Shown here piece by piece: positions 1,981 through 47,018 of a stretch of 64,000 bases of DNA (its first letter is position 1; each line of letters starts with the position of its first letter). The notes beneath the pieces were generated by a model. The model was given only the letters and a program-made list of their open reading frames with translations. It was not told where the DNA came from and did not search any database. The stretch lies in NCBI GenBank assembly GCA_041661275.1, contig JBAZUU010000001.1, positions 229,057 to 293,056 on the forward strand, read 5' to 3'. The translations under genes were made by a program, and so were the position numbers. Source of the stretch: Parcubacteria group bacterium (GTDB lineage: Bacteria; Patescibacteriota; Minisyncoccia; Moranbacterales; UBA2206).

Positions 1981-4221
1981 ATGTCTAAAATCCTAGAAAA
2001 ACTAAATCCTTCCCAGCGCGAGGCGGTGGAGACGATTGATGGGCCGGTGCTTATCATTGCCGGAGCGGGTTCAGGGAAAACGCGGGCGCTCACTCATCGG
2101 GTGGCGTATTTGATTTGTGACAAAAATGTCAGTCCAAGGCGAATTTTGGCGGTGACATTCACAAACAAAGCTGCTCAAGAGATGAAGGAACGGATTGCAG
2201 AATTATTAGGTACTGATGACAACGATGGGAGTTCGACTCCCATTATGGGAGTCGAACTCCCAAGGAAAGAGATGCCGTTGGTGGGCACTTTTCATTCAAT
2301 CTGTGTGAGAATTTTGCGGCGGGAAATTGAGAAAGTGGGATATAAAAAATCATTTTCAATTCTCGATGCGCAGGATCAATTGGCACTTATGAAAAGGACG
2401 ATGAAGGAAATGCAAATTGATACCGATCAATTTAAACCACAAGCCATTTTGGGAGCAATTTCCAAAGCTAAAAACGAATTGATAGATGAAGCGGTTTTTG
2501 AAGAAGGCATCGGCGGATATTGGGAAGACGCAGTGTCGAAAGTTTATAAAACATATCAAAAAAAACTAAAAGACCAAAACGCTTTGGATTTTGACGATCT
2601 CATTATGCAAACAGTCAAAATTTTCAAGACATACCCAGAAATTTTGGCCAAATATCAGGAATTTTGGCGGTACATCATGGTGGATGAATATCAGGATACT
2701 AATCACGCGCAATATACTTTGGTAAAGCTGTTGTCTCAAAAGTATAAAAACATATGGGTTTGCGGTGATGACTGGCAAGGAATTTATATGTTTAGAGGCG
2801 CAGACATTCAAAACATACTCGACTTTGAAAAAGACTATTCAGACGCCAAAGTGATAAAACTAGAACAAAATTATCGTTCTACACAAAACATTCTGGACGC
2901 GGCTTACGGTGTTATTTCTAAAAACATTAATCGAAAAGATAAAAAAATATGGACCGACCAAGCGGGCGGGCATCTCATTACTTCATATGAAGCGGAAGAT
3001 GAAAGGGATGAGTCTGGTTTTATCGCCGAAGAAATCCGGAGAATAAGAAAAAAAGAAAACTATTCATTTTCCGATTTTGTGATTTTATATAGAACCAATG
3101 CTCAATCACGAACCATTGAAGAAGCGATGCTCAAAAATTCCCTGCCCTATCGAATTATTGGGGGCTTAAAATTCTATCAAAGAAAAGAAATAAAAGACGT
3201 CATTGCCTACCTTCGGCTTATTGAAAATTTTTATGACGAAGTTTCTTTGGAGCGCGTTATAAATGTTCCCAAAAAAGATATCGGCGAGATAACCTTGAAT
3301 AAATGGATAAAATTAGCCAGAGAAAATAATGTTAATCCGATAGGGTTTGGAGCTGGTAATTTAAAGATAGAGCCCTCTCCTGTCGCGAAGACGCGACATC
3401 CTCTCCCAGAGGGAGAGGAGGAAAGTAATGTGTTTTTAATTCCTTCCTCTAAAAAAGATAAAATTGCCAAGTTTTGTGAGTTTATAAAGAGGATGAATGA
3501 TGTAAAAAATAATATTCCACTGACTGATTTTATCCAAAAAGTCTTCATTGAATCCGGCTATGAAAAATTTTTGCTCGATGGAACGGAAGAAGGTGAAATG
3601 AGAAATGAGAACGTGCGCGAACTTTTGACGGTGGCTAAAAAATATGATGAATACGAAAGCGATGAAGGTTTGAAATTATTTTTGGAAGAAGTGGCACTTG
3701 TTTCTGATACGGACAATATCGATCAAAATAAAGACGCGGTGCATCTGATGACTTTGCACTCAGCCAAAGGACTGGAATTTAAGGTAGTTTTCATTGCCGG
3801 CCTCGAAGAGGGACTTCTGCCACATTCTCGAAGCATGATAGACGGTCGGGAGATGGAAGAGGAAAGAAGGTTGATGTACGTAGGAATAACTCGCGCCAAA
3901 GTCAAAGTATATTTATTATTTACCAGAGAAAGAAACATCTTTGGCTCAACGCAAGTCAATGCTCCGTCAAGATTTCTTGACGATATTCCGGAACACCTGC
4001 TCGAAGACTCAAATCCCAAATCTCAAATCCCAAATTCCAAACAAATCACAAATCCAAAATCACAAATTCAAAATTCTTTTCGAGATGGTGACAAAGTCAG
4101 TCATGAAATTTTTGGTGAGGGAAGAATAATCGCGACGCAAGGAGATATAATAACTGTGGCGTTTAAAAAAGCAGGATTGAAAAAACTAGCAGCGTCGATA
4201 GCGCCGTTAAGAAAAATTTAG
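1981..4221 (+). CDS. uvrD: UvrD/PcrA/Rep-family ATP-dependent DNA helicase
   Basis: Walker A (AGAGSGKTRALTHR) and the helicase motifs (VDEYQDTN, YRST, LMTLHSAKGLEF, VGITRAK) are present. The ORF also contains three repeat-derived in-frame insertions (see findings). Confidence 0.9.
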   Translation: MSKILEKLNPSQREAVETIDGPVLIIAGAGSGKTRALTHRVAYLICDKNVSPRRILAVTFTNKAAQEMKERIAELLGTDDNDGSSTPIMGVELPRKEMPLVGTFHSICVRILRREIEKVGYKKSFSILDAQDQLALMKRTMKEMQIDTDQFKPQAILGAISKAKNELIDEAVFEEGIGGYWEDAVSKVYKTYQKKLKDQNALDFDDLIMQTVKIFKTYPEILAKYQEFWRYIMVDEYQDTNHAQYTLVKLLSQKYKNIWVCGDDWQGIYMFRGADIQNILDFEKDYSDAKVIKLEQNYRSTQNILDAAYGVISKNINRKDKKIWTDQAGGHLITSYEAEDERDESGFIAEEIRRIRKKENYSFSDFVILYRTNAQSRTIEEAMLKNSLPYRIIGGLKFYQRKEIKDVIAYLRLIENFYDEVSLERVINVPKKDIGEITLNKWIKLARENNVNPIGFGAGNLKIEPSPVAKTRHPLPEGEEESNVFLIPSSKKDKIAKFCEFIKRMNDVKNNIPLTDFIQKVFIESGYEKFLLDGTEEGEMRNENVRELLTVAKKYDEYESDEGLKLFLEEVALVSDTDNIDQNKDAVHLMTLHSAKGLEFKVVFIAGLEEGLLPHSRSMIDGREMEEERRLMYVGITRAKVKVYLLFTRERNIFGSTQVNAPSRFLDDIPEHLLEDSNPKSQIPNSKQITNPKSQIQNSFRDGDKVSHEIFGEGRIIATQGDIITVAFKKAGLKKLAASIAPLRKI
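3372..3422 (+). repeat. CCCTCTCC/GGGAGAGGAGGA structured repeat, copy 1, in frame inside uvrD
   Basis: CCCTCTCCTGTC-GCGAAGACGC-GACATCCTCTCCCAGAGGGAGAGGAGGA. It encodes ...EPSPVAKTRHPLPEGEEE... within the helicase. Confidence 0.8.
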
Positions 4222-4343
4222 AATTTGAAATTTGAAATGAATTTTAAATGATTAAATTTAAAATTAAGACATTCAGAAATTTAAAATTGATTAAAAATTA
4301 AAAATTCTAAATTAAAAATTGAATAAGATAGTCTTAATAAAAC

Positions 4344-4375
4344 AAAAAAACCCAGGATTACTCCGGGCTTTTTTT
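4344..4375. terminator. putative bidirectional intrinsic terminator between convergent uvrD and the LysM/CHAP gene
   Basis: An A-run, an imperfect GC hairpin (CCCAGGATTACTCCGGG) and a T-run. Confidence 0.45.
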
Positions 4376-4385
4376 ACAATAAAAT

Positions 4386-5639
4386 CTAGTATACAAATCC
4401 CTTAACCGCTCTACTTCCTATCGGTATGGTTCTAGTGGATCTCTTGGCGAAGCCTGCATAGTTCATTTCGGATATAGTGAACGAAGATCCGCTGACTGAT
4501 TCTACGATAGCCACGTGTCCCCACCAGGATTCAGAAGAAACCATAATAGCTCCCGGTCTCGGAGTTTTCCCCGTGGAATATCCAGCCGCTTTGGCGTGAT
4601 AGAGCCATGTACCAGCATTTCCGCCCCAAGGAACGTAACGACGAGAGGCTACATACCAAGTGCAGTATCCGTATGGGAAGCTGTGGCCAGCGCCTGCTTT
4701 TCCGGAAAGCACTGATTTTCCGGCGGTGAATGAATCATATTGACGTGGAGCAATACCAATGGAAGAGCCACTGGAAGTAGAAGGAGTGGTAGCTTGTGGA
4801 ACTTCTTTCTGACCATCTGGAATAGTTATTTCTTCGCCCTCCTTTAGCTCTCCATTAGCCGGAAGTCCGTTAAAAGCAATAATTTTATCCTTGTCGGCTT
4901 TATATTCATTACTGACACTATCGATAGTATCACCCTTCTTTACGGTATATGTTAATCCGGAAACAGGGAGAATGAATATCTTATCTCCGGGCATAATGTC
5001 GTCAACATTATCCATTTCGTTTGCCCAGAGAATTGTGTTTACGCTAATCTTGTGGCTAGCGGCAATAGCGCTGACTGTATCGCCAGGCTGAACTTCATAG
5101 ATAACAACTCCGCCATCTTCTTCCGGGTCTTTTCGCACAGGACTCATTCCGGCGATAAGTGATTGTCCTTGAAGCATAAGCGGGCTTTCTTCTTCATCTT
5201 TTGATTCGGGATCGGGAGAGGTGCTGGCTTCAGCCAAAGGCGCCAAGGCTACATTAGTCTTTTTAGCGGATTTCAGAAACATTTTATCTTTTAGCGGATT
5301 ATCATAGTTTTCTTCTTGTCCAAAATAGCCAAATAAAAACCCGCTAGACTCACGGCCTGCGGTGAAATTGGTAGCGGAAACCAAAAGAGCGCAGGAAGCA
5401 ACAACGATAAACGCGCTGTAATTCCGGAATAGGTGCAGAACCTTGATGGTTCGCCGCTCTTTTATGAAACGCACTAATGCTTTTTGTATGATGTGAACCC
5501 GGGCAGCCAGGTTTTTGAGATTTTCGCGTCCTAATAAACTGATGGATAGAGTTTCGAGTAGTTTACTAATAACGATAAACCTTTCTTGTGTTTTGGGCTT
5601 TGGAATTGGCTGAAACCAGCTGTTTCCTTTGACCCTCAC
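4386..5639 (-). CDS. secreted/membrane-anchored peptidoglycan hydrolase with LysM repeats and a C-terminal CHAP domain
   Basis: N-terminal TM segment, two LysM-like segments (GDTVSAIAASHKISVNTILWANE; YTVKKGDTIDSVSNEY) and a CHAP-like C-terminus (YGYCTWYV...GHVAIV). Confidence 0.75.
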   Translation of the reverse strand: MRVKGNSWFQPIPKPKTQERFIVISKLLETLSISLLGRENLKNLAARVHIIQKALVRFIKERRTIKVLHLFRNYSAFIVVASCALLVSATNFTAGRESSGFLFGYFGQEENYDNPLKDKMFLKSAKKTNVALAPLAEASTSPDPESKDEEESPLMLQGQSLIAGMSPVRKDPEEDGGVVIYEVQPGDTVSAIAASHKISVNTILWANEMDNVDDIMPGDKIFILPVSGLTYTVKKGDTIDSVSNEYKADKDKIIAFNGLPANGELKEGEEITIPDGQKEVPQATTPSTSSGSSIGIAPRQYDSFTAGKSVLSGKAGAGHSFPYGYCTWYVASRRYVPWGGNAGTWLYHAKAAGYSTGKTPRPGAIMVSSESWWGHVAIVESVSGSSFTISEMNYAGFAKRSTRTIPIGSRAVKGFVY

Positions 5640-5716
5640 CCTAATTCTTACGTGCTTTCCAGTATAGCCGAAACGGCTTTTTTTGTCAAAACGGATTATT
5701 GTCGCTATAATGATAA

Positions 5717-6679
5717 GTGTCGCAAAACGAAGTTATGAATATCCAAAGCCTAAAAACCCAATTCCTGGAATATCTAGAAATTGAACGCTCGCGGTCGCCA
5801 AAGACCATCGAAAATTATAGCCACTATCTGGATGTCTTTTTGAATTGGGCTCATATCAATGATCCAAAAGAGATAAATGATGATCTGGTGAGAAATTTTC
5901 GCATCCATCTCAACCGCTTGGAGGACAAAAAGGGCAAGCGGCTTCAAAAGGTGACTCAGGGGTATTATGTCATTGCTCTACGCTCATTTTTGAAATATCT
6001 GGCCAAGCGTGATATCAAGACATTGCAAGCGGAAAAAGTGGAAATTGGTAAAACACCAGATCGAGAAGTGGAGTTCCTGGAAGAAGATGAGGTGGAGAGG
6101 CTTTTGGGTGCGGCGAAGGGATCTGATTTCAAATCGCTTCGCGACCGGGCAATTCTCGAGATGCTATTTTCCGCTGGACTGCGTGTTTCGGAGCTGACTG
6201 GTATCAATCGGGATAAATTAAACTTGAAATCAGGCGAGCTGTCTGTTCGTGGAAAAGGCGATAAAATCAGGGTGGTTTTTATTTCCGATACGGCCAAAGA
6301 TGCTTTGAAATCATATTTAGAAAAAAGAACAGATATTGACCCGGCACTTTTTGTGCGGGATGCCAAGGCGCAAGAAAAATTCGAATCAAAAAACAAAAAA
6401 AATAAAAAAGATAATGATAATCTTCGTCTCACCCCCCGTTCCATCCAAAGAATCGTAAAACATTATGCGGTCAAAGCCGGTATTGTCAAAAATGTCCACC
6501 CGCACACGTTACGTCATTCTTTCGCGACTGATTTGTTAATTAACGGAGCGGATATAAGAAGCGTTCAGGCCATGCTCGGCCATTCTTCGATCACCACAAC
6601 GCAGGTCTATACTCACATAACAAACCAACAACTTCGCGAAGTGCACAAAGCCTTTCATGCGAGGAGGAGGAAGAAATAA
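5717..6679 (+). CDS. tyrosine site-specific recombinase, XerC/XerD family
   Basis: The catalytic C-terminus (HPHTLRHSFATDLLINGADIRSVQAMLGHSSITTTQVYTH) matches the family. A K/N-rich low-complexity insertion lies before the catalytic domain. Confidence 0.85.
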   Translation: MSQNEVMNIQSLKTQFLEYLEIERSRSPKTIENYSHYLDVFLNWAHINDPKEINDDLVRNFRIHLNRLEDKKGKRLQKVTQGYYVIALRSFLKYLAKRDIKTLQAEKVEIGKTPDREVEFLEEDEVERLLGAAKGSDFKSLRDRAILEMLFSAGLRVSELTGINRDKLNLKSGELSVRGKGDKIRVVFISDTAKDALKSYLEKRTDIDPALFVRDAKAQEKFESKNKKNKKDNDNLRLTPRSIQRIVKHYAVKAGIVKNVHPHTLRHSFATDLLINGADIRSVQAMLGHSSITTTQVYTHITNQQLREVHKAFHARRRKK

Positions 6680-17263: not shown

Positions 17264-20200
17264 ATGGAAAAAGATATCAAAAATACTAGCGTTATTCAAT
17301 CGCGGGAAATTACCGAAGAAATTTCGCAATCCTATTTGGATTATGCTATGAGCGTCATTGTCGCTCGCGCTTTGCCTGATGTTCGCGATGGCTTGAAGCC
17401 GGTTCACCGAAGAATCCTCTATTCCATGTGGAACACTGGTCTTCGCGCCAATGCTAAATTCCGAAAATCAGCCACAGTGGTCGGAGAAGTCTTGGGAAAA
17501 TATCACCCGCATGGCGACGTGGCGGTCTATGATTCTATGGTGAGAATGGCCCAGGATTTTTCTCTACGCTATCCATTGGTGCGCGGTCAGGGAAACTTCG
17601 GTTGTTTTACAAAAGACACTAGGGTCAAACTGGCTGATGGGCGGAATTTAAGCTTCGAAGATCTTATAAAAGAAGATAAACAGGGCAAAAAAAATTACAC
17701 CTATACGGTTAATTCTTTGGGTTTAATTTCAATAGCTCAAATAAAAAAACCTCGCCTTACCATTGAAAATGCAGAAGTCATTAGAGTTGTGCTGGACAAT
17801 GGGCAGAAAATTAAATGTACTCCTAATCATTTGTTTATGCTCAAAAACGGCCAATATGAAGAAGCGCAAAATCTGAAAAAAGAGGATTCTCTAATGCCGT
17901 TATATGAAAAGTTATCGGAAAAAACTGATAGGCTAAATCGTGAAGGATATACTCTAGTATACCAGCCCAAAAAAGACGAATGGGTTCCCGTGCACCACCT
18001 GGCTGATAATTTCAATTTGACTGTTGGAAAATACATAAAAAGTGTCGGTAGGGTAAGGCATCATTCGGATTTCAATAAACTTAATAACAGTCCTGAAAAT
18101 ATTGTCAGAATGAATTGGAAAGAGCATTGGAGCGTTCATTATGAAAACGCTTCCTTGTTGCATAAAAGCGCGAATTATCGCCAAAAAATTAAAGAAGGTC
18201 GGGATAAATATTGGTCAGACTCTCAAGTTCGAGAGCAATATGCAAAGCGTTTATCTGAAAGGAATGTGATAAATTGGGAAAATCCGGAATATCGGGAAAA
18301 GATGCGTCTTTTTTTGAGCGAGATGAATAAGCAGTATATGAAAGATCATCCGGAAAAACGCCAGGAAATTAGTGAGCGCGCTACAAAAACTTTGAAAAGG
18401 CTTTGGAAAAATCCCGAGTATCGCGCGATAATGCATGAAAGAATAATCAAGGGAAACAAAAATCACAAAACCAATAAAACCGGCAGGTTAAAGTTCCTCA
18501 ATGTTTGTAAGGAAATTATTGCAAAAAATCTTGAGATAAATGAAAAAAATTATTCTCAATTCAGAAAAAAAGTTTATGCCTATGGAGCGGCAACGCTATG
18601 GGAGACAGGATTGAATAAATATTTTCAAAATAGTCCTGACCTGATTCGACAGGAAATAAGCAAAAATCACAGAATCGTTAGGATCGAAAAGATAAAAGAA
18701 AAAGAAGATGTGTTTGACCTTACGATTGATAATTCTCACAACTTTTGTTTGGGTGCCGGAGTATTTGTTCATAACTCGATGGATGGTGATAGCGCGGCAG
18801 CCTATCGTTATACAGAAGCCAAGCTTTCTGTCATTGCTGAAGAAATGCTTATTGACATCGAAAAGAATACTGTCGATTTTGTGCCGAACTTTGACGGACA
18901 GCACAAAGAACCAACTGTTCTTCCCGCCGGACTCCCTCAGCTTCTTCTCAACGGTTCTATGGGAATCGCTGTCGGGATGGCGACAAACATCCCTCCGCAT
19001 AATTTAGGCGAACTTATCGACGGCATCAATTGTCTTATTGAAAATCCGGACGCGGAAATTTCTGATCTCGCGGAATTTGTGAAAGGTCCGGACTTCCCTA
19101 CTGGTGGTATAATTTACAACAAAAAAGACATCCTGGAAGCCTACAAGACCGGACGGGGAAAAATTCTCACGCGAGCCAAGGCGGAAATCGTGGAAACAAA
19201 AGCCGGTGCGTTTCAAATCATTGTGAGCGAAATGACTTATGCCACTAACAAAGCGACAATGATTGAGCGAATGGCTGATCTGGTGCATGAAGGAAAAATT
19301 GTCGGTATTAGGGACATTCGAGATGAATCAGACAAGGAAGGAGTGCGGCTGGTCATTGAGCTCAAAAAAGACGCTTATCCGCAAAAAGTTTTGAATAAAC
19401 TATATTCCCTCACCGATCTCCAAAAAAACTTTGGAGTGAATATGTTGGCGCTGGTCGGTGGCATTGAACCGCAGATCTTGAACCTGAAAGATATTTTGGA
19501 AGAATATATCGAACACCGAAAAATTGTCATCACTCGCCGGACTAAATATGATCTGGAAAAAGCACGAGACCGGGCGCATATTTTAGAGGGCTTGAAAATC
19601 GCTCTTGATCATATCGACGCGGTGATAGAAACAATCAAAAAATCAGAAACCAAGGAAATTGCTCATGTCAATTTGATGAAAAAATTCAAATTATCCGACA
19701 GACAGGCTACAGCAATTCTCGAAATGAGATTGCAAACTTTGGCGGGGCTAGAGCAAAAGAAAATCGAAGACGAGCTAGCCGAAAAACTGAAACTGATTGC
19801 GGAGCTCGAAGCTATTCTAAAGAGTGAAAAGAAAATTTTAGGAATAGTCAAAGATGAGTTGGCGCGCGTCAAAGAAAAATATGGCGATGAGAGAAAAACC
19901 AAGATCGTGAAAGGCGGCATCACCGAATTCAAGCAAGAAGACCTTGTGCCGAACGATGAAGCGATAATCACTATTTCCAAAGAAGGATATATTAAAAGAA
20001 TGGATCCGGCCGTATACAAAGTTCAGCGTCGGGGCGGAAAAGGAGTGATTGGCGCCACCACCAAAGAAGGCGATGAAATTTCTGAAATGCTGGGCGTTAT
20101 GGCGCACGACAATCTTCTCTTTTTCACCAACACCGGAAAAGTTTTCCAGACGAAAGCTTATGAAATTCCCGCTTCCACCCGGATCGCCAAAGGCCAGTCC

Positions 20201-20884
20201 ATTGTCAATTTCCTTTCACTTTCCAGTGAAGAAAAAATAACCGCGTTGGTGGCGTCTGGAAAAGATGACGCCTATAAATATATGTTTATGGCCACGGAAA
20301 ACGGCACAGTGAAAAAAACATCGATCGAAGAATTTGAAAATGTCAGGCGTTCCGGACTCATCGCGATAAAGCTGGAAAAAGGTGACGCGCTTTCCTGGGC
20401 GGAAGCGACATCGGGATCTGACGAGGTAGTCATCACTACGCAAAAAGGACAAGCCATCCGCTTTCGCGAATCCGATGTCCGTCCGATGGGTCGTGCTGCA
20501 GCGGGAGTGCGTGGCATCAAACTAAAAACCGAAGACAAAGTGGTCGGGATGGATGTCGTTTTTAAAGGACAAAAAGGCAATCAGCTTTTGGTCATCGGAG
20601 AAAATGGATATGGAAAAAGATCAGATCTCAAATCATACAAAGTCCAGAAGCGCGGTGGGTCAGGAATCAAGACTGCTTCCATCACAGCCAAGACTGGAAA
20701 ACTGATCGGAGCGCAAGTAGTCAATCTTGATGATATTGAACAAGATCTTATTATGACAAGTGAGAAAGGACAGATCATCCGCATTGAGCTAAAAACCGTC
20801 TCCGTCCTCGGCCGCGCGACGCAAGGTGTCAGGGTTATGCGTCCACAACCCGGCGACAAAGTTTCGGCGATAACGGTTTTGTAA
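17264..20884 (+). CDS. gyrA: DNA gyrase subunit A, interrupted by an intein
   Basis: [23 protein letters not shown] and [12 protein letters not shown], then the intein, then [17 protein letters not shown] and the GyrA beta-pinwheel repeats. The extein totals about 815 aa. Confidence 0.95.
17603..18775 (+). mobile_element. GyrA intein (about 391 aa) at the canonical site between GNFG and SMDGD
   Basis: It begins with Cys ([13 protein letters not shown]...), ends ...[12 protein letters not shown] and is followed by Ser. The central domain carries tandem NPEYR(E/A) repeats. I see no LAGLIDADG motif. Confidence 0.85.
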
Positions 20885-22182: not shown

Positions 22183-22417
22183 TTCCTACTCCTTGTGAAA
22201 TCAGGGCAATTATTTATATGAACTTTTTTAAGATTCCAGCTCCCCTTTGGAACTTTCATCTTAACTGTCTATTATACTCCCGAACGGCCAAAATGTCAAA
22301 GATGGACGTCAAGTAAATGGGGTAAAATATAATAAAATGGCTTAAACAAGCCACAAGAATATTGAAAAGTACATACAATGTTGACGGATAGTGCCGACAT
22401 ATGGTAGAATAGAGGTA

Positions 22418-22467
22418 TCCTCCTCTCCCTTTGGGAGAGGATGCCGAGTCTTCGAGGCAGGAGAGGG
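22418..22467 (-). repeat. CCCTCTCC/GGGAGAGGAGGA structured repeat, copy 2 (reverse orientation, degenerate inner hairpin)
   Basis: On the plus strand it reads TCCTCCTCTCCCTTTGGGAGAGGATGCC...GCAGGAGAGGG. Confidence 0.7.
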
Positions 22468-22498
22468 CTCTTAATTAAAATCGTTAATCTAACGAAGA

Positions 22499-22554
22499 GC
22501 CCTCTCTGTCACGATAAGAATCGCGACATCTCTCCCAAAGGGAGAGAGGGAGGA
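22499..22554 (+). repeat. CCCTCTCC structured repeat, copy 3, ending 6 nt before the TrmB-paralog ATG
   Basis: GCCCTCTCTGTC-ACGATAAGAATCGC-GACATCTCTCCCAAAGGGAGAGAGGGAGGA. The GGAGG serves as the Shine-Dalgarno sequence. Confidence 0.8.
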
Positions 22555-22559
22555 ATTTT

Positions 22560-32888: not shown

Positions 32889-32942
32889 GCCCTCTCTGTC
32901 ACGATAAGAATCGTGACATCTCTCCCGGAGGGAGAGAAGGAT
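32889..32942 (+). repeat. CCCTCTCC structured repeat, copy 4, upstream of cca
   Basis: GCCCTCTCTGTC-ACGATAAGAATCGT-GACATCTCTCCCGGAGGGAGAGAAGGATA. A TATAAT box lies just upstream at about 32870. Confidence 0.8.
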
Positions 32943-32956
32943 AATGAAGAAGATTT

Positions 32957-34525
32957 ATGATTGATAAAATCCCACAATATGTAATTGGAATTATCCAAAA
33001 ACTTGAAACTGCCGGTTTTGAGGGTTTTGTGGTGGGCGGGTGCGTGCGGGATATACTTTTGGATAAAGAGCCAAAGGATTGGGATGTGGCGACGAACGCC
33101 AAGCCGGAGGAAATAATGAAAATATTTACGGACAGTGTTTATGAGAATGAATTTGGAACAGTTGGAATAAAAATTAAGGCCGATCCGAATCTACGAATGA
33201 AATCCGAATCTACGAATGAGTCAGGAGTAACCATTGATGTTGTGGAAATTACCACTTATAGAATTGAATCCAAGTATTCTGATAAGCGGCATCCGGATAG
33301 TGTAAAATTTGCGAAGACTCTGGAAGAAGATTTGAGTCGGAGAGATTTTACGGTTAATGCGATGGCGTTGCGTTTGAATTTTTCTAAGGTTCGACCTTTC
33401 CCTTCCTCGAGCAAAGCTCTCGGAATTCCTCAAGGTCAAACCTTGAAAAATTTCGAATATGAAATAATTGATCCGTTTATTGGACAAAATGATCTGAAAA
33501 ATAAAATCATTCGGGCTGTTGGAAAAGCGAATGATAGGTTCAACGAAGATGCGCTGCGCATGATGCGAGCGATTCGTTTTGCAGTGCAGTTAGATTTTAA
33601 GATTGAGAAAAAGACATTTCTAGCTATCAAAAAGAATGCGAAAAACTTAAAGTTCATTTCCCAAGAAAGGATAAAAGACGAGTTTGAAAAGATAATTTTG
33701 TCGCCAAAGCCGGCGGAAGGGATAAAACTTCTTTATGAGTCCGGATTACTTTTTCAATTCATTCCTGAAATGGAGGAATCAGTCGGATTTGAACAGGGTT
33801 TTCATCATTATCACGGGCCATATCGCATGGTTTTTGATCATATGGTGGCGTCGCTCGAACATTGTCCATCAGAAAAACTCGAAGTACGATTAGCTTGTCT
33901 ATTTCATGATATTGGAAAACCAAGAACGGCTGGAGGAAAGGGGATAGAAACTACGTTTTATAACCACCAATACGCCGGAGCAAGAATGACGCGCGAAATC
34001 CTGCGACGTTTGCGATTTTCACGTGAAACAATTGAAAAGACAGTTATGCTGGTGCAAAACCATATGTTTTTCTATGATGTTGATCAAGTGGGGGAAGCAG
34101 GAGTGAGGCGAGTAGTGCGTCGGGTAGGACTGGAAAATATCAACGACCTCATCGACGTGCGGATTGGAGATAGGCTTGGGTCGGGAGTGGCGAAGGCGGT
34201 GCCATATAAACTGCGTCACTTCAAATATATGGTGGAAAAAGTATCGCATGATCCGATTTCGGTGAAACAATTGAAAATAAACGGCAATGATTTAATGAAT
34301 GAGTTGAAACTTGCTCCCGGACCGAAAATTGGGGCGATTTTGGACGTGCTGCTAGCAGAGGTTATTGATAACCCGGCGTTGAATGATAAAAAACAACTGT
34401 TAAAAAGGGCTAAGGATTTGGAAATCAGGGATATTGGGGAAATTAGGGAAATGGCCAAAAGGAAAATAGAAGAGGAAAAACAGGTGGAAGATAAAAAAAT
34501 CAAAGGAAAGTACTGGGTTAAATAG
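32957..34525 (+). CDS. cca: CCA-adding tRNA nucleotidyltransferase / poly(A)-polymerase family with HD domain
   Basis: GGCVRDILL...DWD head domain and HD motif LACLFHDIGKP. It contains a tandem 16/19 nt duplication (33184-33218) that encodes an extra loop. Confidence 0.8.
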   Translation: MIDKIPQYVIGIIQKLETAGFEGFVVGGCVRDILLDKEPKDWDVATNAKPEEIMKIFTDSVYENEFGTVGIKIKADPNLRMKSESTNESGVTIDVVEITTYRIESKYSDKRHPDSVKFAKTLEEDLSRRDFTVNAMALRLNFSKVRPFPSSSKALGIPQGQTLKNFEYEIIDPFIGQNDLKNKIIRAVGKANDRFNEDALRMMRAIRFAVQLDFKIEKKTFLAIKKNAKNLKFISQERIKDEFEKIILSPKPAEGIKLLYESGLLFQFIPEMEESVGFEQGFHHYHGPYRMVFDHMVASLEHCPSEKLEVRLACLFHDIGKPRTAGGKGIETTFYNHQYAGARMTREILRRLRFSRETIEKTVMLVQNHMFFYDVDQVGEAGVRRVVRRVGLENINDLIDVRIGDRLGSGVAKAVPYKLRHFKYMVEKVSHDPISVKQLKINGNDLMNELKLAPGPKIGAILDVLLAEVIDNPALNDKKQLLKRAKDLEIRDIGEIREMAKRKIEEEKQVEDKKIKGKYWVK

Positions 34526-34545: not shown

Positions 34546-34614
34546 GCCCTCTCCTGTCAGCCAGAATTTTAAGAAAAATTCAGACTGACATCCTCTCCCA
34601 AAGGGAGAGGAGGA
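34546..34614 (+). repeat. CCCTCTCC structured repeat, copy 5 (long inner hairpin), upstream of the ORF at 34634
   Basis: GCCCTCTCCTGTC-AGCCAGAATTTTAAGAAAAATTCAGACT-GACATCCTCTCCCAAAGGGAGAGGAGGA, with TATAAT immediately upstream. Confidence 0.8.
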
Positions 34615-34633
34615 TAATGCAGGTTACTATTTT

Positions 34634-35278
34634 ATGGCTTCGCAAATTGCCCATATAATATATGACAATAGTTTCTTCAAAAAAATTGAGAAAAGTGGGA
34701 TTTCCGGTTTAATCTTGCCGGCGGAAAAATTGAATCGAGAGGAGTTTATTCTAGGTTCGGTTTTTCCCGATGTCAGAAGGATTGATAATTCTATCAAGAG
34801 AAGGGACACGCATATGCACTTTACCTTAATCGATCTTGATTTTTCCGGGCTAACTTCTTTTGAAGCAGGATGGAAGTTCCATCTCTATTGTGATATGAGG
34901 CGGGAAGAAATTTTGAATAAATATAAGTTTTATGATCTAGAAAACACTTCTGATTTCTATGGACATCCGGCGAAAATTTTGGAAGACGAATTGGTCTATG
35001 ATGATTATAATAACTGGGAAAAGATGTCGCTCTATCTCAAAAATCCGCCATTTCATCCGGTTCTTGATAGTGTCAATGAAGATACATACCGGCTTTGGTA
35101 TGCAATGATTTCCAGATATGTAGAAAGAAAACCTGATGATGCGACAATGCGAACTTTTCTTCTCAAGCAAGTTAATCTGGATGCAAAAATAAATCTTCTG
35201 GTAGAACACGTGGGGAAAATAAGGAAAAACAAAAAAGCAAAGGAAATTTTATTAAAAATTAAGGAAGAAATAATATGA
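34634..35278 (+). CDS. hypothetical protein
   Basis: 214 aa. Its stop overlaps the start of the next gene (ATGA). Confidence 0.45.
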   Translation: MASQIAHIIYDNSFFKKIEKSGISGLILPAEKLNREEFILGSVFPDVRRIDNSIKRRDTHMHFTLIDLDFSGLTSFEAGWKFHLYCDMRREEILNKYKFYDLENTSDFYGHPAKILEDELVYDDYNNWEKMSLYLKNPPFHPVLDSVNEDTYRLWYAMISRYVERKPDDATMRTFLLKQVNLDAKINLLVEHVGKIRKNKKAKEILLKIKEEII

Positions 35279-40483: not shown

Positions 40484-40528
40484 ATGTTGTCAAAAAGTAA
40501 TATTAACTGTAGAATGATTAGGTTTGCT

Positions 40529-40577
40529 CCCTCTCCTGTCCCGAAACGGGACATCCTCTCCCGGAGGGAGAGGAGGA
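40529..40577 (+). repeat. CCCTCTCC structured repeat, copy 6, 21 nt upstream of tRNA-Leu(CAG)
   Basis: CCCTCTCCTGTC-CCGAAACGG-GACATCCTCTCCCGGAGGGAGAGGAGGA, preceded by a TAGAAT box. Confidence 0.8.
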
Positions 40578-40598
40578 TTTGAAGGTTACTGTTTATAG

Positions 40599-40682
40599 GC
40601 CCAGGTGGCGGAATTGGTATACGCGCTAGTTTCAGGTACTAGTTCCCGTAAGGGATTGGAGGTTCGAGTCCTCTTCTGGGCA
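40599..40682 (+). tRNA. tRNA-Leu(CAG)
   Basis: Type II tRNA with a long variable arm and anticodon loop TTCAGGT. Confidence 0.85.
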
Positions 40683-40717
40683 CAAGGATTAAAATAAAAA
40701 GTGAAAAGCAAATATTT

Positions 40718-40801
40718 GCCCGGGTGGCGGAATTGGTATACGCGCTAGTCTTAGGAACTAGTACTCGCAAGGGTTTGAAGGTTCGAGTCCTTTCCCGGGC
40801 A
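40718..40801 (+). tRNA. tRNA-Leu(TAG)
   Basis: Type II tRNA with anticodon loop CTTAGGA. Confidence 0.85.
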
Positions 40802-40816
40802 CTTAATTTTAAATCA

Positions 40817-40937
40817 GAGAGGCGGAATTGGCTTGCCTCGATTCGACGAGATGTCTCATCGAGTCGAAGCGGGTATACGCGTCCCGCCTTGGCGGGATAC
40901 TCGCAAGGGTTTGAAGGTTCGAGTCCTTTCCCGGGCA
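40817..40937 (+). pseudogene. degenerate tRNA-Leu(TAG)-derived tRNA-like sequence
   Basis: The 3' 39 nt are identical to tRNA-Leu(TAG). A roughly 41 nt hairpin is inserted in the D-loop. The anticodon arm is replaced by the tight hairpin TCCCGCCTTGGCGGGA. The 5' acceptor strand is not complementary to the 3' strand. Confidence 0.5.
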
Positions 40938-40939
40938 CG

Positions 40940-41896
40940 ATGAAAAAAATAACTGTCGAAAAAAATAATTCAGAACAAAGAATTGATAAGTTCCTGGTGA
41001 AGGAATTTTTTTCTTATACTCGCGGAGAAATTATCCGCCAGATAAAAAATGGTAATGTTTTGGCTAATGGTAAAAAAACAAAACCCAGCTATATCCTGAA
41101 AGAAAACGATGAGCTGGAAATAAATCTGGAAGAAACCAGTTCGGAACTTCTTCCTAATAAAAAAATAAAATTGGAAATTATTTTTCAAGACGAAAATATC
41201 GTTGTTGTCAACAAACCCGCTGGTTTGCAGGTCCACCCAGACTTTCACGAGAAAAAAAATACGCTTGTAAACGCATTGATTAATAAATTCCCGGAAATAA
41301 AAAATGTCGGCGAGAATATGATGCGACCGGGGATTGTTCATCGCCTAGACAAAGATACTTCGGGTGTAATTATCATTGCTAGAAATCAGAAGACATTTGT
41401 GGAGTTGAAAAATAAGTTTAAAAATAGGGAAGTAGAAAAAAAATACTGGGCGATTGTTTACCGGGCTTCGGAATCGGGAAGATTAGGGGAATCGGGGATT
41501 TTATCGGGGGTAATCGAGGCGCCAATTGCTCGATCATCTAAGTATCGAAAGCAGGTGATTGCCGGAAAGAAAACAAAAACTAAAGTCAGAGAAGCAGTTA
41601 CTAAGTATAGAGTGTTGAAAGAATGGAATATTTTTTCTCTTTTAGAAGTTACTCCGAAAACTGGGCGGATGCATCAAATTCGAGTCCATCTGACTTCTAT
41701 CGGTCATCCAATCGTGGGGGATAAACTTTATAAGAATAAGACCAATAGGACAAATAGGACGAATATAATAGAGAACAGAGCAGTAAGGCAGATGCTTCAT
41801 GCCAAAAGCATCAGATTTAATCTTTTTGGGGAGGACTTCTCGTTTGAGGCACAGATACCAGAAGATTTCAATCAATTCTTGACTTCCAGCCGATAA
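40940..41896 (+). CDS. RluA-family pseudouridine synthase (RluD-like, with S4-like N-terminus)
   Basis: HRLDKDTSGVIIIARN catalytic motif. The track ORF starts at 40724 and spuriously spans the tRNAs, so I take the start at MKKITVEKN. Confidence 0.85.
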   Translation: MKKITVEKNNSEQRIDKFLVKEFFSYTRGEIIRQIKNGNVLANGKKTKPSYILKENDELEINLEETSSELLPNKKIKLEIIFQDENIVVVNKPAGLQVHPDFHEKKNTLVNALINKFPEIKNVGENMMRPGIVHRLDKDTSGVIIIARNQKTFVELKNKFKNREVEKKYWAIVYRASESGRLGESGILSGVIEAPIARSSKYRKQVIAGKKTKTKVREAVTKYRVLKEWNIFSLLEVTPKTGRMHQIRVHLTSIGHPIVGDKLYKNKTNRTNRTNIIENRAVRQMLHAKSIRFNLFGEDFSFEAQIPEDFNQFLTSSR

Positions 41897-42775: not shown

Positions 42776-42825
42776 CCCTCTCCTGTCCCGCAGACGGGAC
42801 ATCCTCTCCCAGAGGGAGAGGAGGA
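42776..42825 (+). repeat. CCCTCTCC structured repeat, copy 7, 21 nt upstream of tRNA-Phe
   Basis: CCCTCTCCTGTC-CCGCAGACGG-GACATCCTCTCCCAGAGGGAGAGGAGGA, preceded by a TATATA box. Confidence 0.8.
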
Positions 42826-42846
42826 TTTGAAGAATACTGTTTGTAG

Positions 42847-43152
42847 GCCAGGTTAGCTCAGCGGTAGAGCGAAGGACTGAATTTCGGTCCGTCCGGCAGT
42901 AATGCCGGAATGAAAATTGGGTGAATTCGAGGAAACCTAAGTTGCCGATGAGGCAAAATGGCAATCTCGAGCCAAGTCTTGATGGGCATAGTTTTCAAGA
43001 AAGGTGTAGAGACTAGCGAGTGAGTCCCAACAATAATCTCGCATTAGCGCCCAATATCCTGATGAAGGATAATGAAATAGTCCAATCCTTGGGGAAACTC
43101 AAGAAGGAAAAGGAAAATCCTTGCGTGCCCAGTTCGACTCTGGGACCTGGCA
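42847..43152 (+). tRNA. tRNA-Phe(GAA) split by a group I intron in the anticodon loop
   Basis: Exon 1 is GCCAGGT-TA-GCTCAGCGGTAGAGC-G-AAGGA-CT (42847-42878). Exon 2 is GAAAA-TCCTT-GCGTG-CCCAG-TTCGACT-CTGGG-ACCTGGC-A (43113-43152). Spliced loop is CTGAAAA. Confidence 0.75.
42879..43112 (+). ncRNA. group I intron (234 nt), no ORF
   Basis: The internal guide GGTCC pairs with exon 1 GGACU through a U:G at the splice site, and the intron ends in G. Its core resembles the cyanobacterial tRNA-Leu intron as I recall it (GGAAACCTAA; CTCGAGCCAAGTC; GGTGTAGAGACTAGCG; TAGTCCAATCC). Confidence 0.75.
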
Positions 43153-43209
43153 CTTACAAAGTTAAAAGTTCAAAATTAAAAGTTAAAAGTTTGGCTAACT
43201 TTTAACTAT

Positions 43210-45180: not shown

Positions 45181-45199
45181 AAACAAATTATTAAAGCAA

Positions 45200-46131: not shown

Positions 46132-46140
46132 CAAGATATT

Positions 46141-46224: not shown

Positions 46225-46227
46225 CGC

Positions 46228-46262
46228 AAAAAAATCGTTCCGATTAGGCGGGACGATTTTAG
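46228..46262. terminator. bidirectional intrinsic terminator (tRNA cluster / udg)
   Basis: A-run, ATCGTTCCG-ATTAGG-CGGGACGAT, then a T-run. Confidence 0.65.
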
Positions 46263-46846: not shown

Positions 46847-46864
46847 AGTTGTAAAAAAAGTGTT

Positions 46865-46917
46865 TCCCTCTCTCCCTCTGGGAGAGATGTCACGATTCTT
46901 ATCGTGACAGAGAGGGT
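46865..46917 (-). repeat. CCCTCTCC structured repeat, copy 8, oriented toward and just upstream of udg
   Basis: The reverse complement reads ACCCTCTCTGTC-ACGATAAGAATCGT-GACATCTCTCCCAGAGGGAGAGAGGGA, with a TATATA box upstream on the minus strand. Confidence 0.8.
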
Positions 46918-46967
46918 ACTATATAAAACTGAATAAAATATATAATTTTGTGAATTTAATTTAGAGT

Positions 46968-47018
46968 CCTCTCCTATCCCGCCAAGGCGGGACATCCTCT
47001 CCCAAAGGGAGAGGAGGA
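46968..47018 (+). repeat. CCCTCTCC structured repeat, copy 9 (variant TCCTCTCCTATC), with no gene downstream on its strand
   Basis: TCCTCTCCTATC-CCGCCAAGGCGG-GACATCCTCTCCCAAAGGGAGAGGAGGA. Confidence 0.75.

Follow-up and report, generated by a model that had tools for sequence, protein, structure and literature searches.

Intrastrand-triplex repeats

The closest known elements to the repeat described here are BoxC, PIT and TMECO, the intrastrand-triplex repeats of E. coli (Holder 2015; PMC4666352). TMECO has the form CCCTCNCCC N3-6 GGGNGAGGG N3 GGGNGAGGG and is intergenic. [quoted passage not shown]

A nine-copy repeat with a covarying hairpin

An earlier note on the window (a 64,000-nt stretch of a Parcubacteria group bacterium contig, JBAZUU010000001.1) had reported a dispersed structured repeat in nine copies. 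The pattern CATC(C)TCTCCC-NNN-GGGAGAG indeed matches nine times at the places reported, with zero matches expected (100 shuffles), and a covariance model of the nine copies, which the note had proposed for a genome-wide search, recovers with filters off the same nine at 62-77 bits while everything else in the window scores at most 18 bits. On the C-rich strand each copy consists of Y1 (the third-strand tract), a linker hairpin, Y2, a 3-nt loop and R, with Y2 and R forming a homopyrimidine/homopurine stem; the G-rich strand reads Y, loop, R, hairpin and R_H, the third-strand tract and reverse complement of Y1 (Table 1). Two variants are present, A (CCCTCTCCT-hairpin-TCCTCTCCC-NNN-GGGAGAGGA-GGA) and B (CCCTCTCT-hairpin-TCTCTCCC-NNN-GGGAGAGA-GGGA), which differ by a single position lost jointly from Y1, Y2 and R. 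Copies 6 and 7 are 93% identical across 56 nt. Two inverted A + B pairs occur (copies 2/3 and 8/9), the first of which (22415-22556) is predicted to fold into a single long imperfect hairpin.

Table 1. Copies of the repeat in the window, with the parts of each copy and its surroundings
Copy	Coordinates	Strand	Variant	Y1	Linker	Y2	Loop	R	3' extension or tail	Context	Bits
1	3373..3422	+	A	3373-3381 CCCTCTCCT	3382-3398	3399-3407	3408-3410	3411-3419 GGGAGAGGA	GGA	in frame within uvrD	77.1
2	22418..22467	-	A	22459-22467	22442-22458 (two mismatches)	22433-22441		22421-22429		left partner of head-to-head pair with copy 3	70.3
3	22500..22554	+	B	22500-22507 CCCTCTCT	22508-22528	22529-22536		22540-22547 GGGAGAGA	GGGAGGA, ending 5 nt from ATG	right partner of pair with copy 2; TrmB-like gene (ATG 22560)	
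4	32890..32941	+	B	32890-32897	32898-32918	32919-32926		32930-32937		cca ATG (32957) 15 nt downstream	
5	34547..34633	+	A	34547-34555	34556-34590 (35 nt)	34591-34599		34603-34611	19-nt tail, 34615-34633	hypothetical gene (ATG 34634)	
6	40529..40598 (G-rich strand 40529-40577, 49 nt, tail GGAGAGGG)	+	A	40529-40537	40538-40553	40554-40562		40566-40574	21-nt tail	tRNA-Leu(CAG) at 40599	
7	42776..42846	+	A	42776-42784	42785-42801	42802-42810		42814-42822	21-nt tail	between tRNA-Val(UAC) and tRNA-Phe(GAA) at 42847	
8	46865..46916	-	B	46909-46916	46888-46908	46880-46887		46869-46876		udg ATG (46846, minus strand) 18 nt downstream; left partner of second head-to-head pair	
9	46967..47018	+	A	46967-46975 TCCTCTCCT (8/9 triplets)	46976-46994	46995-47003		47007-47015		right partner of pair with copy 8; 18 nt past stop codon of convergent metallophosphoesterase gene	71.1

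The linker hairpin had been described as always self-complementary, which is true without exception for seven of the nine copies; copy 3 has one A:C mismatch and copy 2 has two mismatches. Its proposed covariation was borne out in 136 distinct copies, taken from public genomes as well as from the window: pairing is kept in 96.9% of cells, and double (compensatory) changes occur in six of the seven linker pairs (one pair, for example, is CG 60, GC 30, AU 28 and UA 7 times), a degree of covariation reached by none of 500 shuffles. The linker is a stem-loop maintained through compensatory changes.

The mirror rule

The main design rule of the element, absent from the earlier reading, is that Y1 mirrors Y2, the pyrimidine arm of the second hairpin, and therefore corresponds in parallel to every base of the purine arm R; single-strand triple helices have this layout. 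The rule was evaluated in the window together with 117 public loci, retrieved with a search pattern in which Y2 and R were fixed and Y1 was free; these contain 218 pyrimidine-loop-purine hairpins whose R spans 8 nt or more, and hence 436 flanks. A perfect parallel third-strand tract was found in 176 of these flanks, as compared with 2.6 in shuffled flanks and 12 at the wrong polarity, and a perfect alternative Watson-Crick partner in only 4 of 436. Among the 136 hairpins whose purine word is clearly asymmetric, the match is parallel in 109 and of reversed polarity in 8, and 3 have Watson-Crick partners. Independent words that obey the rule are GGGAGAGGA/CCCTCTCCT, GGGAGAGA/CCCTCTCT, GGGAGAAGG/CCCTCATCC, GAGGAAGG/CTCCTTCC and AAGGGGAGG/AACCCCTCC. 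These comparisons indicate that the rule is kept across unrelated sequence families and many phyla; since copies within a family share ancestry, the counts exaggerate how many independent events there were, and the independent evidence amounts to a handful of distinct word families.

The exceptions are also informative as to strand. Where R has A, the base of Y1 opposite is A at 16.7% of positions; where R has G, it is A at only 2.8% (P = 7e-10). These A-opposite-A exceptions are what T·A-T triplets of the purine motif would give if the G-rich strand forms the triplex. Folding of single-stranded DNA predicts two adjacent hairpins for either strand, with the third tract left free.

Placement, promoters and absence in relatives

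At six of the eight intergenic copies, a gene or tRNA on the same strand begins within 28 nt of the copy's downstream end (8.3% at random; P = 8e-6), so that the copies do mostly abut gene starts, as had been claimed, and the individual placements given earlier are correct. The downstream features are cca, udg, the TrmB-like gene, the hypothetical gene, tRNA-Leu and tRNA-Phe; the tRNA-Phe(GAA) is real and contains a 234-nt group I intron. Copy 2, read previously as pointing at a three-gene operon, is placed as described but lies upstream, not downstream, of the operon's consensus promoter (TTGACA-17-TATAAT, 22299-22271 on the minus strand) and is thus not in the operon leader. In other Moranbacteria, several genes have a variant B copy 18-24 nt before their ATG, and downstream genes are uvrB-like, serS-like and ABC-permease-like (N-terminal translations judged by eye). 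Across many genomes, related copies occur in both orientations, in intergenic DNA and within ORFs, with opposite orientation biases within ORFs in CPR and Bacteroidota.

Most copies had been said to follow a -10-like box. A strict hexamer (at least 5/6 positions, ending 4-13 nt upstream of the copy) is present at only three of nine, which does not differ significantly from the intergenic background of 11.7% (P = 0.08). At three copies TATAAT or TAGAAT lies 7-13 nt upstream, and copy 6 is preceded by a promoter-like TTGTCA-17-TAGAAT (40487-40515) ending 13 nt upstream.

Comparison of uvrD, cca and udg with relatives, which had been suggested as a check, found the copies missing from the same sites. 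The uvrD copy is, as claimed, an in-frame insertion, located in a hypervariable UvrD linker and lacking in the closest UvrD homologs (80-82% identity). The element upstream of cca is absent in relatives L121 and L124 (77-78% identity), and the spacer upstream of udg in L201 and L202 is without such an element. Downstream of cca, the empty site of L121 (that of copy 5) reads TATAAT, 10 nt and ATGGCTTCA; upstream of cca, L121 has a 38-nt spacer in which alignment by eye shows no more than a weaker -10-like stretch. Close relatives thus differ by the gain or loss of copies. Within this Moranbacteria-like genome the copies lie preferentially between a -10 box and the next gene or tRNA start, in sense orientation, the box being ancestral at one of the sites and probably at another. 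The site absence in relatives, the in-frame UvrD insertion and the occurrence in both orientations in many genomes all fit the earlier proposal of a REP/RPE-like selfish element; no transposase, terminal inverted repeat or target-site duplication was found for it.

Alternative explanations

If the element acted as RNA, copies would be expected in sense orientation upstream of genes, as they are here. In one such account the C-rich-strand transcript would be a cis-regulatory leader of two hairpins, in which a closing helix between Y1 and the 3' extension hides or exposes a Shine-Dalgarno sequence to control translation or stability of the downstream gene; alternate hiding and exposure through anti-SD-like tracts had been suggested in the earlier note. 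Besides the placement, including that of variant B in other Moranbacteria, this account draws on the 3' end (GGAGGA or GGGAGGA, with ATG 5 nt away in copy 3), on a closing helix, 3 bp or longer, in seven of nine window copies (2.5 expected) and 23 of 49 CPR copies (10.7 expected), and on RNAfold predictions for variant B of a 6-7 bp closing helix of GGGAGG with CCUCUC (z-scores -3 to -4.2). A helix burying GGGAGG is, however, predicted for variant B only; in variant A the closing helix has just 3 bp, and Bacteroidota, Clostridia and other groups lack it, so that it does not characterise the wider family. Two copies precede tRNAs, for which translation is irrelevant, one lies within uvrD, one after a convergent gene and one upstream of a promoter, no function is common to the downstream genes, and in relatives of about 77-85% protein identity the same genes have leaders without the element. 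No Rfam family matched at gathering score, and a Watson-Crick model does not account for the mirror rule, all of which makes a regulatory leader unlikely. An RNA triple helix would account for that rule within the window: all nine copies conform equally well to a pyrimidine-motif triplex (C+·G-C, U·A-U) of the transcribed C-rich strand (8 perfectly, 1 with a single mismatch), and -10-like boxes a few nt upstream at three sites would place Y1 near the RNA 5' end, where the fold might act as a cap against 5'-dependent RNases or as a pH-sensitive switch. It would nevertheless need protonated cytosines in six of 8-9 triplets, a CCC run included, which is unfavourable at neutral pH. According to literature summarised in PMC4666352, pyrimidine-type intrastrand triplexes can form in RNA, but in the wider family pyrimidine-only rules fit just 96 of the 176 perfect tracts, the A that so often stands opposite A can be accommodated only by a purine motif of the other strand, and in relatives the element takes both orientations relative to genes; we regard this explanation as improbable.

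That the element is an ordinary REP-like double hairpin, its Y1/Y2 mirror a by-product of low-complexity pyrimidine sequence or shared ancestry, is suggested by the descent that relates the copies and by the mirror symmetry of the core word GGAGAGG itself, which makes mirror and direct repeats hard to separate in the window family alone. We give this little credence, as the asymmetric words favour the parallel match over reversed polarity, the third word family (GAGGAAGG with CTCCTTCC) matches at 8 of 8 in parallel and, on our own reading, at only 2 of 8 as a direct repeat, and the allowed exceptions are specifically A opposite A. A related alternative, a G-quadruplex or i-motif from four G or C runs, has in its favour the four G runs of the G-rich strand; for TMECO the quadruplex was discussed and was excluded in vitro by NMR (PMC4666352). 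The element had also been read as a promoter/5'-leader cassette, of which the leader position is statistically real here. A portable promoter, with its own -10 box and a start at the G before CCCTCTCC, is highly improbable. Apart from the three boxes described above, it could appeal to TAAT ending 5-16 nt upstream of six of nine copies, a motif picked post hoc from the data, and to a conserved 21-nt 5' segment with AATAAT on variant B in some other Moranbacteria. Against it, the sequence 5' of Y1 is not conserved across the nine copies, the strict -10 test falls short of significance, 48 copies from other CPR genomes gave no orientation-specific -10 signal, and PIT/TMECO elements showed no promoter activity (PMC4666352). 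That L121 has the -10 box without the element downstream of cca, and probably, as a weaker stretch, also upstream of it, indicates that the element did not bring the promoter; the portable promoter is thereby contradicted at the first of these sites and probably at the other.

Proposed mechanism and comparison with known repeats

In the reading that we favour, and hold to be reasonably likely, this short non-coding repeat of about 50-90 nt belongs to the intrastrand-triplex class, is insertion-polymorphic and has a covarying hairpin as its second loop. The element behaves as an insertion element. We propose that when the DNA is single-stranded, during replication, repair or in a transcription bubble, the G-rich strand would fold into two stacked hairpins; its 3' purine tract would then turn back along the pyrimidine/purine stem and occupy the major groove there, giving a triplex of the purine motif (G·G-C, A·A-T, T·A-T). 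This fold, or a factor reading it, may be the target of selection or propagation. In this genome the copies are probably transcribed as structured 5' leaders, whose purine 3' end (GGAGGA) could be used as a ribosome-binding site; such expression effects would be side effects or local co-option and not the family's reason for existing.

As a pyrimidine-tract mirror repeat that obeys triple-helix pairing rules, the element is placed beside BoxC, PIT and TMECO, a repeat class that is known and functionally unexplained. Like TMECO, of which 5 of 23 copies are in inverted type A + type B pairs (PMC4666352), it occurs as inverted A + B pairs, and canonical TMECO is found alongside the hairpin form at two Moranbacteria loci (L015 and L056). 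It differs from the E. coli repeats in that a covarying hairpin takes the place of their 3-nt second loop, and this hairpin-linker form is previously undescribed.

Architecture of the Repeat

On its C-rich strand, the dispersed repeat consists of a 5' pyrimidine tract (Y1), a linker hairpin and a second hairpin, whose pyrimidine arm (Y2) and purine arm (R) are separated by a 3-nt loop. A search for CATC(C)TCTCCC-NNN-GGGAGAG found nine matches in the window, with zero expected from dinucleotide-preserving shuffles. A covariance model built from the alignment of these nine copies and run on the window with filters off returned exactly the same nine at 62–77 bits, while its remaining matches scored below 18 bits and either arise from the second hairpin read in reverse or are noise. 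The copies recovered by both searches are precisely those listed in an earlier note made from the sequence alone. No Rfam family matched any copy at gathering score. The host genome belongs to the candidate phyla radiation (CPR), and the nearest relatives of its UvrD are those of Moranbacteria.

Two tract-length forms of the element were distinguished: variant A (CCCTCTCCT, hairpin, TCCTCTCCC, NNN, GGGAGAGGA, GGA), represented by six window copies, and variant B (CCCTCTCT, hairpin, TCTCTCCC, NNN, GGGAGAGA, GGGA), represented by three. Alignment of the window copies shows that they differ by one position removed jointly from Y1, Y2 and R. The window contains two head-to-head pairs, each composed of one variant A and one variant B copy, and one of these pairs folds into a single imperfect hairpin of approximately 60 bp. 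A purine run resembling a Shine-Dalgarno sequence terminates both strands of the element, and three window copies have in common approximately 20 further nucleotides at the 3' end, a segment that seems to belong to the inserted unit.

The linker hairpin had been described in the earlier note as covarying and always self-complementary. It is perfect in seven of the nine window copies, the exceptions being copy 22500, with one A:C mismatch, and the minus-strand copy 22418–22467, with two mismatches; covariation, the other half of the claim, was upheld. The 89 distinct linkers contain 524 Watson-Crick pairs and 34 others. When 136 distinct copies were aligned with the model, 96.9% of cells were paired and six of the seven linker pairs had changes on both sides; the observed covariation was reached by none of 500 shuffles. 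Compensatory changes were also seen between different genomes in the same gene context (GCGAGTACGC in locus L004 versus ATGAGTACAT in locus L065). The second stem (Y2/R) is nearly invariant, partly because the search pattern fixed its sequence. G:T and A:C mismatches in the linker (5 versus 10 among 558 pairs) are too few to assign a strand.

Positions of the element, of related insertions and of other features (window coordinates unless a public locus is named)
Feature	Position	Strand	Remarks
Element copy	3373		inside uvrD
Element copy	22418–22467	−	
Element copy	22500		
Element copy	32890		upstream of cca
Element copy	34547		downstream of cca
Element copy	40529–40577		before tRNA-Leu; G-rich strand 5'-TCCTCCTCTCCCTCCGGGAGAGGATGTCCCGTTTCGGGACAGGAGAGGG-3', with 3' tail GGAGAGGG and purine arm GGGAGAGGA
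Element copy	42776		before tRNA-Phe
Element copy	46865–46916	−	at udg
Element copy	46967		
Metallophosphoesterase-udg spacer, with triplex pair	46847–47035		
Same spacer with palindromic insertion, relative L201	5861–6000		CCGTCATCCTGAGC...GCTCAGGATGACGG
Same spacer with palindromic insertion, relative L202	5804–6000		AATTCACCTAATT...AATTAGGTGAATT
Cca-loop motif, locus L123	2712–2753		short-loop or hairpin-linker; encodes PPLRPADTSPQAGE
Cca-loop motif (probable), locus L126	2928–2965		short-loop or hairpin-linker
Cca-loop motif, locus L127	1039–1072		short-loop or hairpin-linker
Cca-loop motif, locus L128	2706–2739		short-loop or hairpin-linker
Upstream ORF after copy 4	32939–32962		6 codons
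Upstream ORF after copy 5	34611–34655		13 codons
tRNA-Phe(GAA)	42847–43153		234-nt group I intron at anticodon-loop position 34
gyrA	17264–20884		intein (Pfam Intein_splicing, residues 123–504)
Second copy of tRNA-Leu(UAG) 3' half	40902–40952		80% identical to 40647–40697, 75% to 40766–40816
AAATCCCAAATCTCAAATCC... repeats	4011–4082, 49840–49911		75% identical; first copy inside 3' part of uvrD
Repeat of ~175 nt	55292–55466, 55920–56094		81–86% identical, 628 nt apart
TrmB-like paralogs	1195–1920, 22560–23306		46-nt stretch (1238–1283, 22606–22651) 83% identical

A Third Tract that Follows the Purine Arm

Y1 is the mirror image of Y2 and hence, with both tracts read 5' to 3', corresponds to R at every base (C opposite G, T opposite A). 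The linker hairpin between Y1 and Y2 supplies the U-turn that this parallel geometry needs. The relationship, which the earlier note missed, was quantified on 218 hairpins with an R of at least 8 nt, taken from the window and at least 117 public loci and providing 436 flanks. A perfect parallel third-strand tract was present in 176 of these flanks, compared with 2.6 in shuffled flanks and 12 in reversed polarity. Where the purine word is clearly asymmetric, the tract is parallel in 109 of 136 hairpins, of reversed polarity in 8 and a Watson-Crick partner in 3. Since the members of one family descend from a common ancestor, it is the distinct words, and not the raw counts, that constitute independent evidence. 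Other word families, obtained as by-catch of the same loci, keep the rule: CCCTCATCC occurs with GGGAGAAGG, CTCCTTCC with GAGGAAGG and AACCCCTCC with AAGGGGAGG, and three further Uhrbacteria words behave likewise. Conventional Watson-Crick pairing between Y1 and R was rejected as the cause of Y1 conservation, as a perfect alternative partner for R was found in only 4 of the 436 flanks and such pairing is impossible in word families 2 and 3.

The rule could be read as a pyrimidine-motif triplex of the C-rich strand or as a purine-motif triplex (G*G-C, A*A-T, T*A-T) of the G-rich strand. The former is possible in RNA and requires protonated cytosines. When only pyrimidine-motif rules are allowed, the number of perfect tracts falls from 176 to 96, the difference being due to the presence of A in Y1, as in CCCTCACC and CCCTCATCC. 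With tracts chosen by pyrimidine-only scoring to avoid bias, 16.7% of the A positions of R faced an A in Y1, compared with 2.8% of its G positions (odds ratio 6.9, P = 7e-10, 78 distinct combinations). On the G-rich strand such an A reads as T, which yields the purine-motif T*A-T triplet. With the third-strand tract on the G-rich strand denoted R_H (reverse complement of Y1), purine-motif triplets of the correct polarity are perfect in eight of the nine window copies, with eight of nine triplets in the other. All nine carry T at the positions in question and therefore fit both strand readings. Folded as single-stranded DNA, either strand forms two adjacent hairpins and leaves the third tract unpaired. 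The sequence patterns suggest that a triplex may form in the cell and that the relevant strand is probably the G-rich DNA strand.

Leader Position and Insertion into Existing Sites

The gene placements reported in the earlier note were correct. Eight of the nine copies are intergenic, in a window of which only about 15% is intergenic DNA, and six of these eight end at most 28 nt upstream of the start of a gene or tRNA on the same strand (random expectation 8.3%, P ~8e-6). The element has accumulated in 5' leader positions in this genome and lies once inside a protein-coding gene. The proposal that most copies follow a −10 box is on weaker ground: a hexamer matching at least five of six positions at a suitable distance was found at only three of the nine copies, an association short of significance (intergenic background 11.7%, P = 0.08), and no such association was seen in other CPR genomes. 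A full −35/−10 match just upstream is present at copy 40529 only. At the minus-strand copy 22418, a perfect TTGACA-17-TATAAT promoter lies downstream of the element, which therefore cannot be the leader of that operon.

Two features were noted downstream of copies. After copies 4 and 5, GGAtaATG starts upstream ORFs that overlap, out of frame, the annotated starts of cca and of the next gene, and these ORFs could couple translation. The tRNA-Phe(GAA) gene is missed by default ARAGORN and recovered once a 234-nt intron is permitted, in agreement with an Rfam Intron_gpI match of 87 bits at 42869–43104.

Comparison with relatives of uvrD, cca and udg, a check proposed in the earlier note, found the same sites without the element. 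The uvrD copy encodes part of the hypervariable UvrD linker; homologs of 82% and 80% identity are devoid of it, the window having approximately 75 extra nucleotides in the DNA alignment, and two syntenic 22-kb loci from these relatives contain no copy anywhere. The uvrD copy is an in-frame insertion, polymorphic among homologs, that resembles the Rickettsia palindromic elements (RPE) in behaviour, a likeness that does not imply homology. Relatives with 77–78% identical Cca have no copies on either side of cca. At the downstream site of one of them (L121), TATAAT is followed after 10 nt by ATGGCTTCA, while in the window TATAAT is followed by aaaggtg, the element with a 19-nt tail, and then ATGGCTTCG. 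The presence of TATAAT in the locus without the element indicates that the element was inserted after a −10 box already in place and ahead of the start codon, in a gene whose leader was very short. At the upstream site the relative's spacer is 38 nt long and, aligned by eye, contains only a weaker −10-like stretch, suggesting the same arrangement. In relatives whose Udg is 85% identical and whose gene order is conserved, the metallophosphoesterase-udg spacer has no triplex element and carries unrelated palindromic insertions in its place. Each of three related genomes thus has a different palindromic insertion there, that of the window being the triplex pair, and the spacer resembles an insertion hotspot of inverted-repeat elements. 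An exact-protein look-up found no protein on record identical to the window Udg.

The element behaves as an insertion element, and both its gain and loss between relatives and the in-frame uvrD insertion are in keeping with the REP/RPE-like selfish element that the earlier note had offered as one of its readings. Classification as a MITE was rejected: no target-site duplication was found between filled and empty sites, nor any conserved flanks, and single copies lack terminal inverted repeats, an overall inverted repeat existing only in head-to-head pairs. Triplex-type motifs also occur in frame within the Cca surface loop of three CPR relatives and probably of a fourth. Together with the UvrD copy, these motifs suggest that in-frame insertion into core proteins is common in CPR.

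Readings at the RNA Level

The leader position raises the alternative of a dedicated regulatory RNA. In RNAfold predictions, the two hairpins are enclosed by a helix that joins the 3' part of Y1 to the extension following R; this helix is 3 bp long in variant A (UCC/GGA) and 6–7 bp in variant B, in which GGGAGG would be buried. A local effect of variant B copies on translation is plausible. Window copies are probably transcribed and may supply ribosome-binding sites. Several facts argue against a dedicated leader. Copies are also found ahead of tRNAs, within a gene and upstream of a promoter; the genes that follow them have no relation to one another; and relatives lack the element at the corresponding sites. 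A riboswitch or cis-regulatory leader, for which one gene family or pathway and conserved sites would be expected, was rejected on the same grounds, the genes being unrelated and including tRNAs. The closing helix was likewise discarded as a general feature, as it is enriched in window and CPR copies and not in other groups, is reduced to 3 bp in variant A and cannot explain the mirror rule.

Distribution in Other Genomes

A scan of one genome per species for GACATC(N)TCTCCC-NNN-GGGAGAG, a pattern that does not include the 5' tract, matched at least 117 loci, and in nearly all of them CCCTC(T/A)C(C)TGTC, a hairpin and GACA precede the match. Hosts among the matches listed include CPR (Moranbacteria, Uhrbacteria and others), Flavobacteriaceae (cultured Dokdonia, Polaribacter, Aquimarina, Bizionia, Gelidibacter and Ulvibacter), Clostridia, where the element occurs in arrays with a period of approximately 230 nt, and Ignavibacteriales, Zixibacteria, Phycisphaerales and Hyphomicrobium. 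A few of the matches listed, in high-GC coding DNA, were dismissed as chance matches.

Other CPR genomes contain the element in both orientations. Some copies adjoin tRNA 3' ends, some lie 18–24 nt upstream of the ATG of unrelated genes (uvrB-like, serS-like and ABC-permease-like, as read by eye from their N-termini), and others are found upstream of genes on the G-rich strand or in frame inside ORFs. The sense strand of in-ORF copies is mostly the G-rich strand in Bacteroidota and the C-rich strand in CPR, according to crude ORF-based counts that are noisy, because open frames run upstream of true starts, and that serve only for this contrast in orientation between phyla.

Carriage by phages was rejected, as only 1 of 2.9 million viral contigs contains the motif. 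That contig (L120, IMGVR_UViG_3300027740_000033) has approximately ten triplex-type motifs in 5 kb (1138–6098), built from several words, e.g., CCCCTCCC TGA CCCTCCCC AAA GGGGAGGG. In gut Clostridia (L051, 60–660; L062, 3600–4300; L073), a multi-hairpin mosaic repeat of approximately 230 nt has the variant B core as one of its modules and includes a second triplex module (CTCCTTCC...CCTTCCTC NNN GAGGAAGG); this repeat occurs as intergenic tandem arrays, e.g., downstream of purL.

Other Repeats and Insertions

Several further features were observed. In addition to gyrA, several UvrD homologs of relatives contain inteins (PF14890 in P0049, P0057, P0066, P0071 and P0082). Some 100 nt beyond the intact gene and directly ahead of an ATG, the additional tRNA-Leu(UAG) 3' half resembles a scar left by integration into a tRNA 3' end. 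Read by eye, the AAATCCCAAATCTCAAATCC repeats would encode peptides found in the hypervariable UvrD linker of relatives (ISNFQFPISNK, QIQNSKS); a further peptide of that linker, TLPTGRQV, would correspond to a hairpin repeat of the CCTACCGGCAGGCAGG type. The repeat of approximately 175 nt contains GC-rich hairpins (CGGATTCGCCTTCGGC, CTCGCTTCGCTCGCGG) and flanks small ORFs. Genes similar to the TrmB-like paralogs also lie near uvrD in the syntenic locus L118.

Significance

What the analysis contributes is comparative evidence, namely that the third tract follows the purine arm across unrelated words and many phyla, with exceptions that fit the purine motif, and that the connecting loop may be a long hairpin, a form beyond the published search with loops of 1–6 nt. 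The occurrence of the hairpin form in cultured Flavobacteriaceae such as Dokdonia and Polaribacter renders the question testable in the laboratory. In CPR, the element is predicted to remodel 5' leaders: genes whose leaders are short would gain 70–90 nt of structured RNA together with a ribosome-binding-like run. Core proteins such as UvrD and Cca acquire additional peptide segments in their surface loops. Both effects bear on gene annotation and on the reading of promoters and leaders in uncultured lineages.

A broader proposal is that the triplex fold constitutes the functional core of a class of cross-phylum mobile elements, copied or integrated as a single-stranded triplex-plus-hairpin clamp. 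We consider this improbable. Integration would then favor transiently single-stranded DNA, for instance that of the open complex immediately past a −10 box; in a variant of the proposal, a transcribed copy would form a 5'-terminal RNA triple-helix cap in this lineage. Were the proposal true, the third-strand covariation would be the first evolutionary evidence of bacterial nucleic-acid triplexes under selection, and the Whalefall-1 “RNA” would be a DNA element of that class.

Comparison with Known Systems

Literature searches by sequence words returned unrelated eukaryotic papers only, and nothing relevant was found on triplex repeats in Patescibacteria. REP and BIME elements, which are associated with RAYT transposases, are short dispersed intergenic hairpins, often in inverted pairs or arrays, and are single imperfect palindromes without a third tract. 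The present element is similar in its dispersed hairpins and inverted pairs, and its Clostridial relatives form arrays of approximately 230 nt. The GTAG or CGTC head of REP elements is absent from all nine window copies. A Pfam scan of ten window ORFs found no RAYT (Y1 transposase) among those ten. RPEs are reportedly short structured elements of 100–150 bp, restricted to Rickettsia, that are found in frame within genes without disrupting them as well as in intergenic DNA, and are said to lack a triplex-type mirror rule. The likeness to RPEs extends to in-frame gene insertion and intergenic sites, but the sequences are unrelated.

Whalefall-1 (RF01762), a non-coding RNA of unknown function, was described only from whale-fall metagenomes (Weinberg et al. 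2010, PMC2864571). The order of its parts, UCUCUCC-loop-GGAGAGA, a second hairpin and a conserved GGGUGAGG tail, is that of the G-rich strand of the element, and with the consensus read by eye this tail fits its purine arm at 6 of 7 positions as an antiparallel purine motif. It is the only Rfam family near the element, matching the minus strand of copy 40529 at 18 bits (E = 0.014), and membership was rejected as this score falls below the gathering threshold of 37 bits. Whalefall-1 was not found at gathering score in 18 loci from six phyla, nor up to E = 1 in 1.75 kb of the Dokdonia locus L068 (3050–4800), which contains three copies of the element.

The closest counterpart is the BoxC/PIT/TMECO class of repeats, for which, to our knowledge, neither function nor mode of spread has been found since their recognition in the 1990s; the case for their triplex has been built on oligonucleotide biophysics. 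These repeats (Hoyne et al. 2000, as cited in Holder et al. 2015, NAR 43:10126, PMC4666352) follow the pattern 5'-CCCTCNCCC N3-6 GGGNGAGGG N3 GGGNGAGGG-3' and form a class II purine-motif triplex that is stable in vitro as an isolated strand, with melting at 70–82 °C, and was not detected in vivo (PMC4666352). TMECO copies are intergenic in E. coli, without promoter or terminator activity and unlinked to mobile elements; 5 of the 23 copies in E. coli K-12 are in inverted pairs, always of type A with type B, and TMECO loci vary more between strains than control sites (PMC4666352).

Like this class, the element combines on one strand a pyrimidine tract, the complementary purine tract and a further purine tract as a possible third strand, in nearly identical words (CCTCTCCC, GGGAGAGG, GG(A/T)GAGGG). 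Also in common are many dispersed, mostly intergenic copies with two-type inverted pairs, the lack of a link to phages or known transposases, and a presence that varies between close relatives. Tested against the class, the element obeys the triplet rules and is multi-copy, dispersed and largely intergenic, with inverted two-type pairs; it departs from the sequence pattern, which has no match in the window. Among the matches listed, the published pattern was found in 3 of 120 loci (L015, L042, L056), and in two Moranbacteria loci it adjoins hairpin-form copies. The ITxF database search of Holder et al. allowed loops of 1–6 nt only and would miss the hairpin form.

The two also differ in several respects. 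In place of the 3-nt second loop of TMECO, the element has a covarying hairpin of 16–35 nt within a conserved G-N-C...G-N-C-A frame, and its tracts are 8–9 nt long with different end words. Its density of nine copies per 64 kb compares with 23 TMECO copies in the 4.6-Mb E. coli K-12 genome. Some of its copies are in frame within genes, while the TMECO copies of E. coli are without exception intergenic; the element's strong leader position was not reported for E. coli TMECO. On the basis of these sequence comparisons, the element is best described as a putative hairpin-linker variant of the BoxC/PIT/TMECO intrastrand-triplex repeat class.
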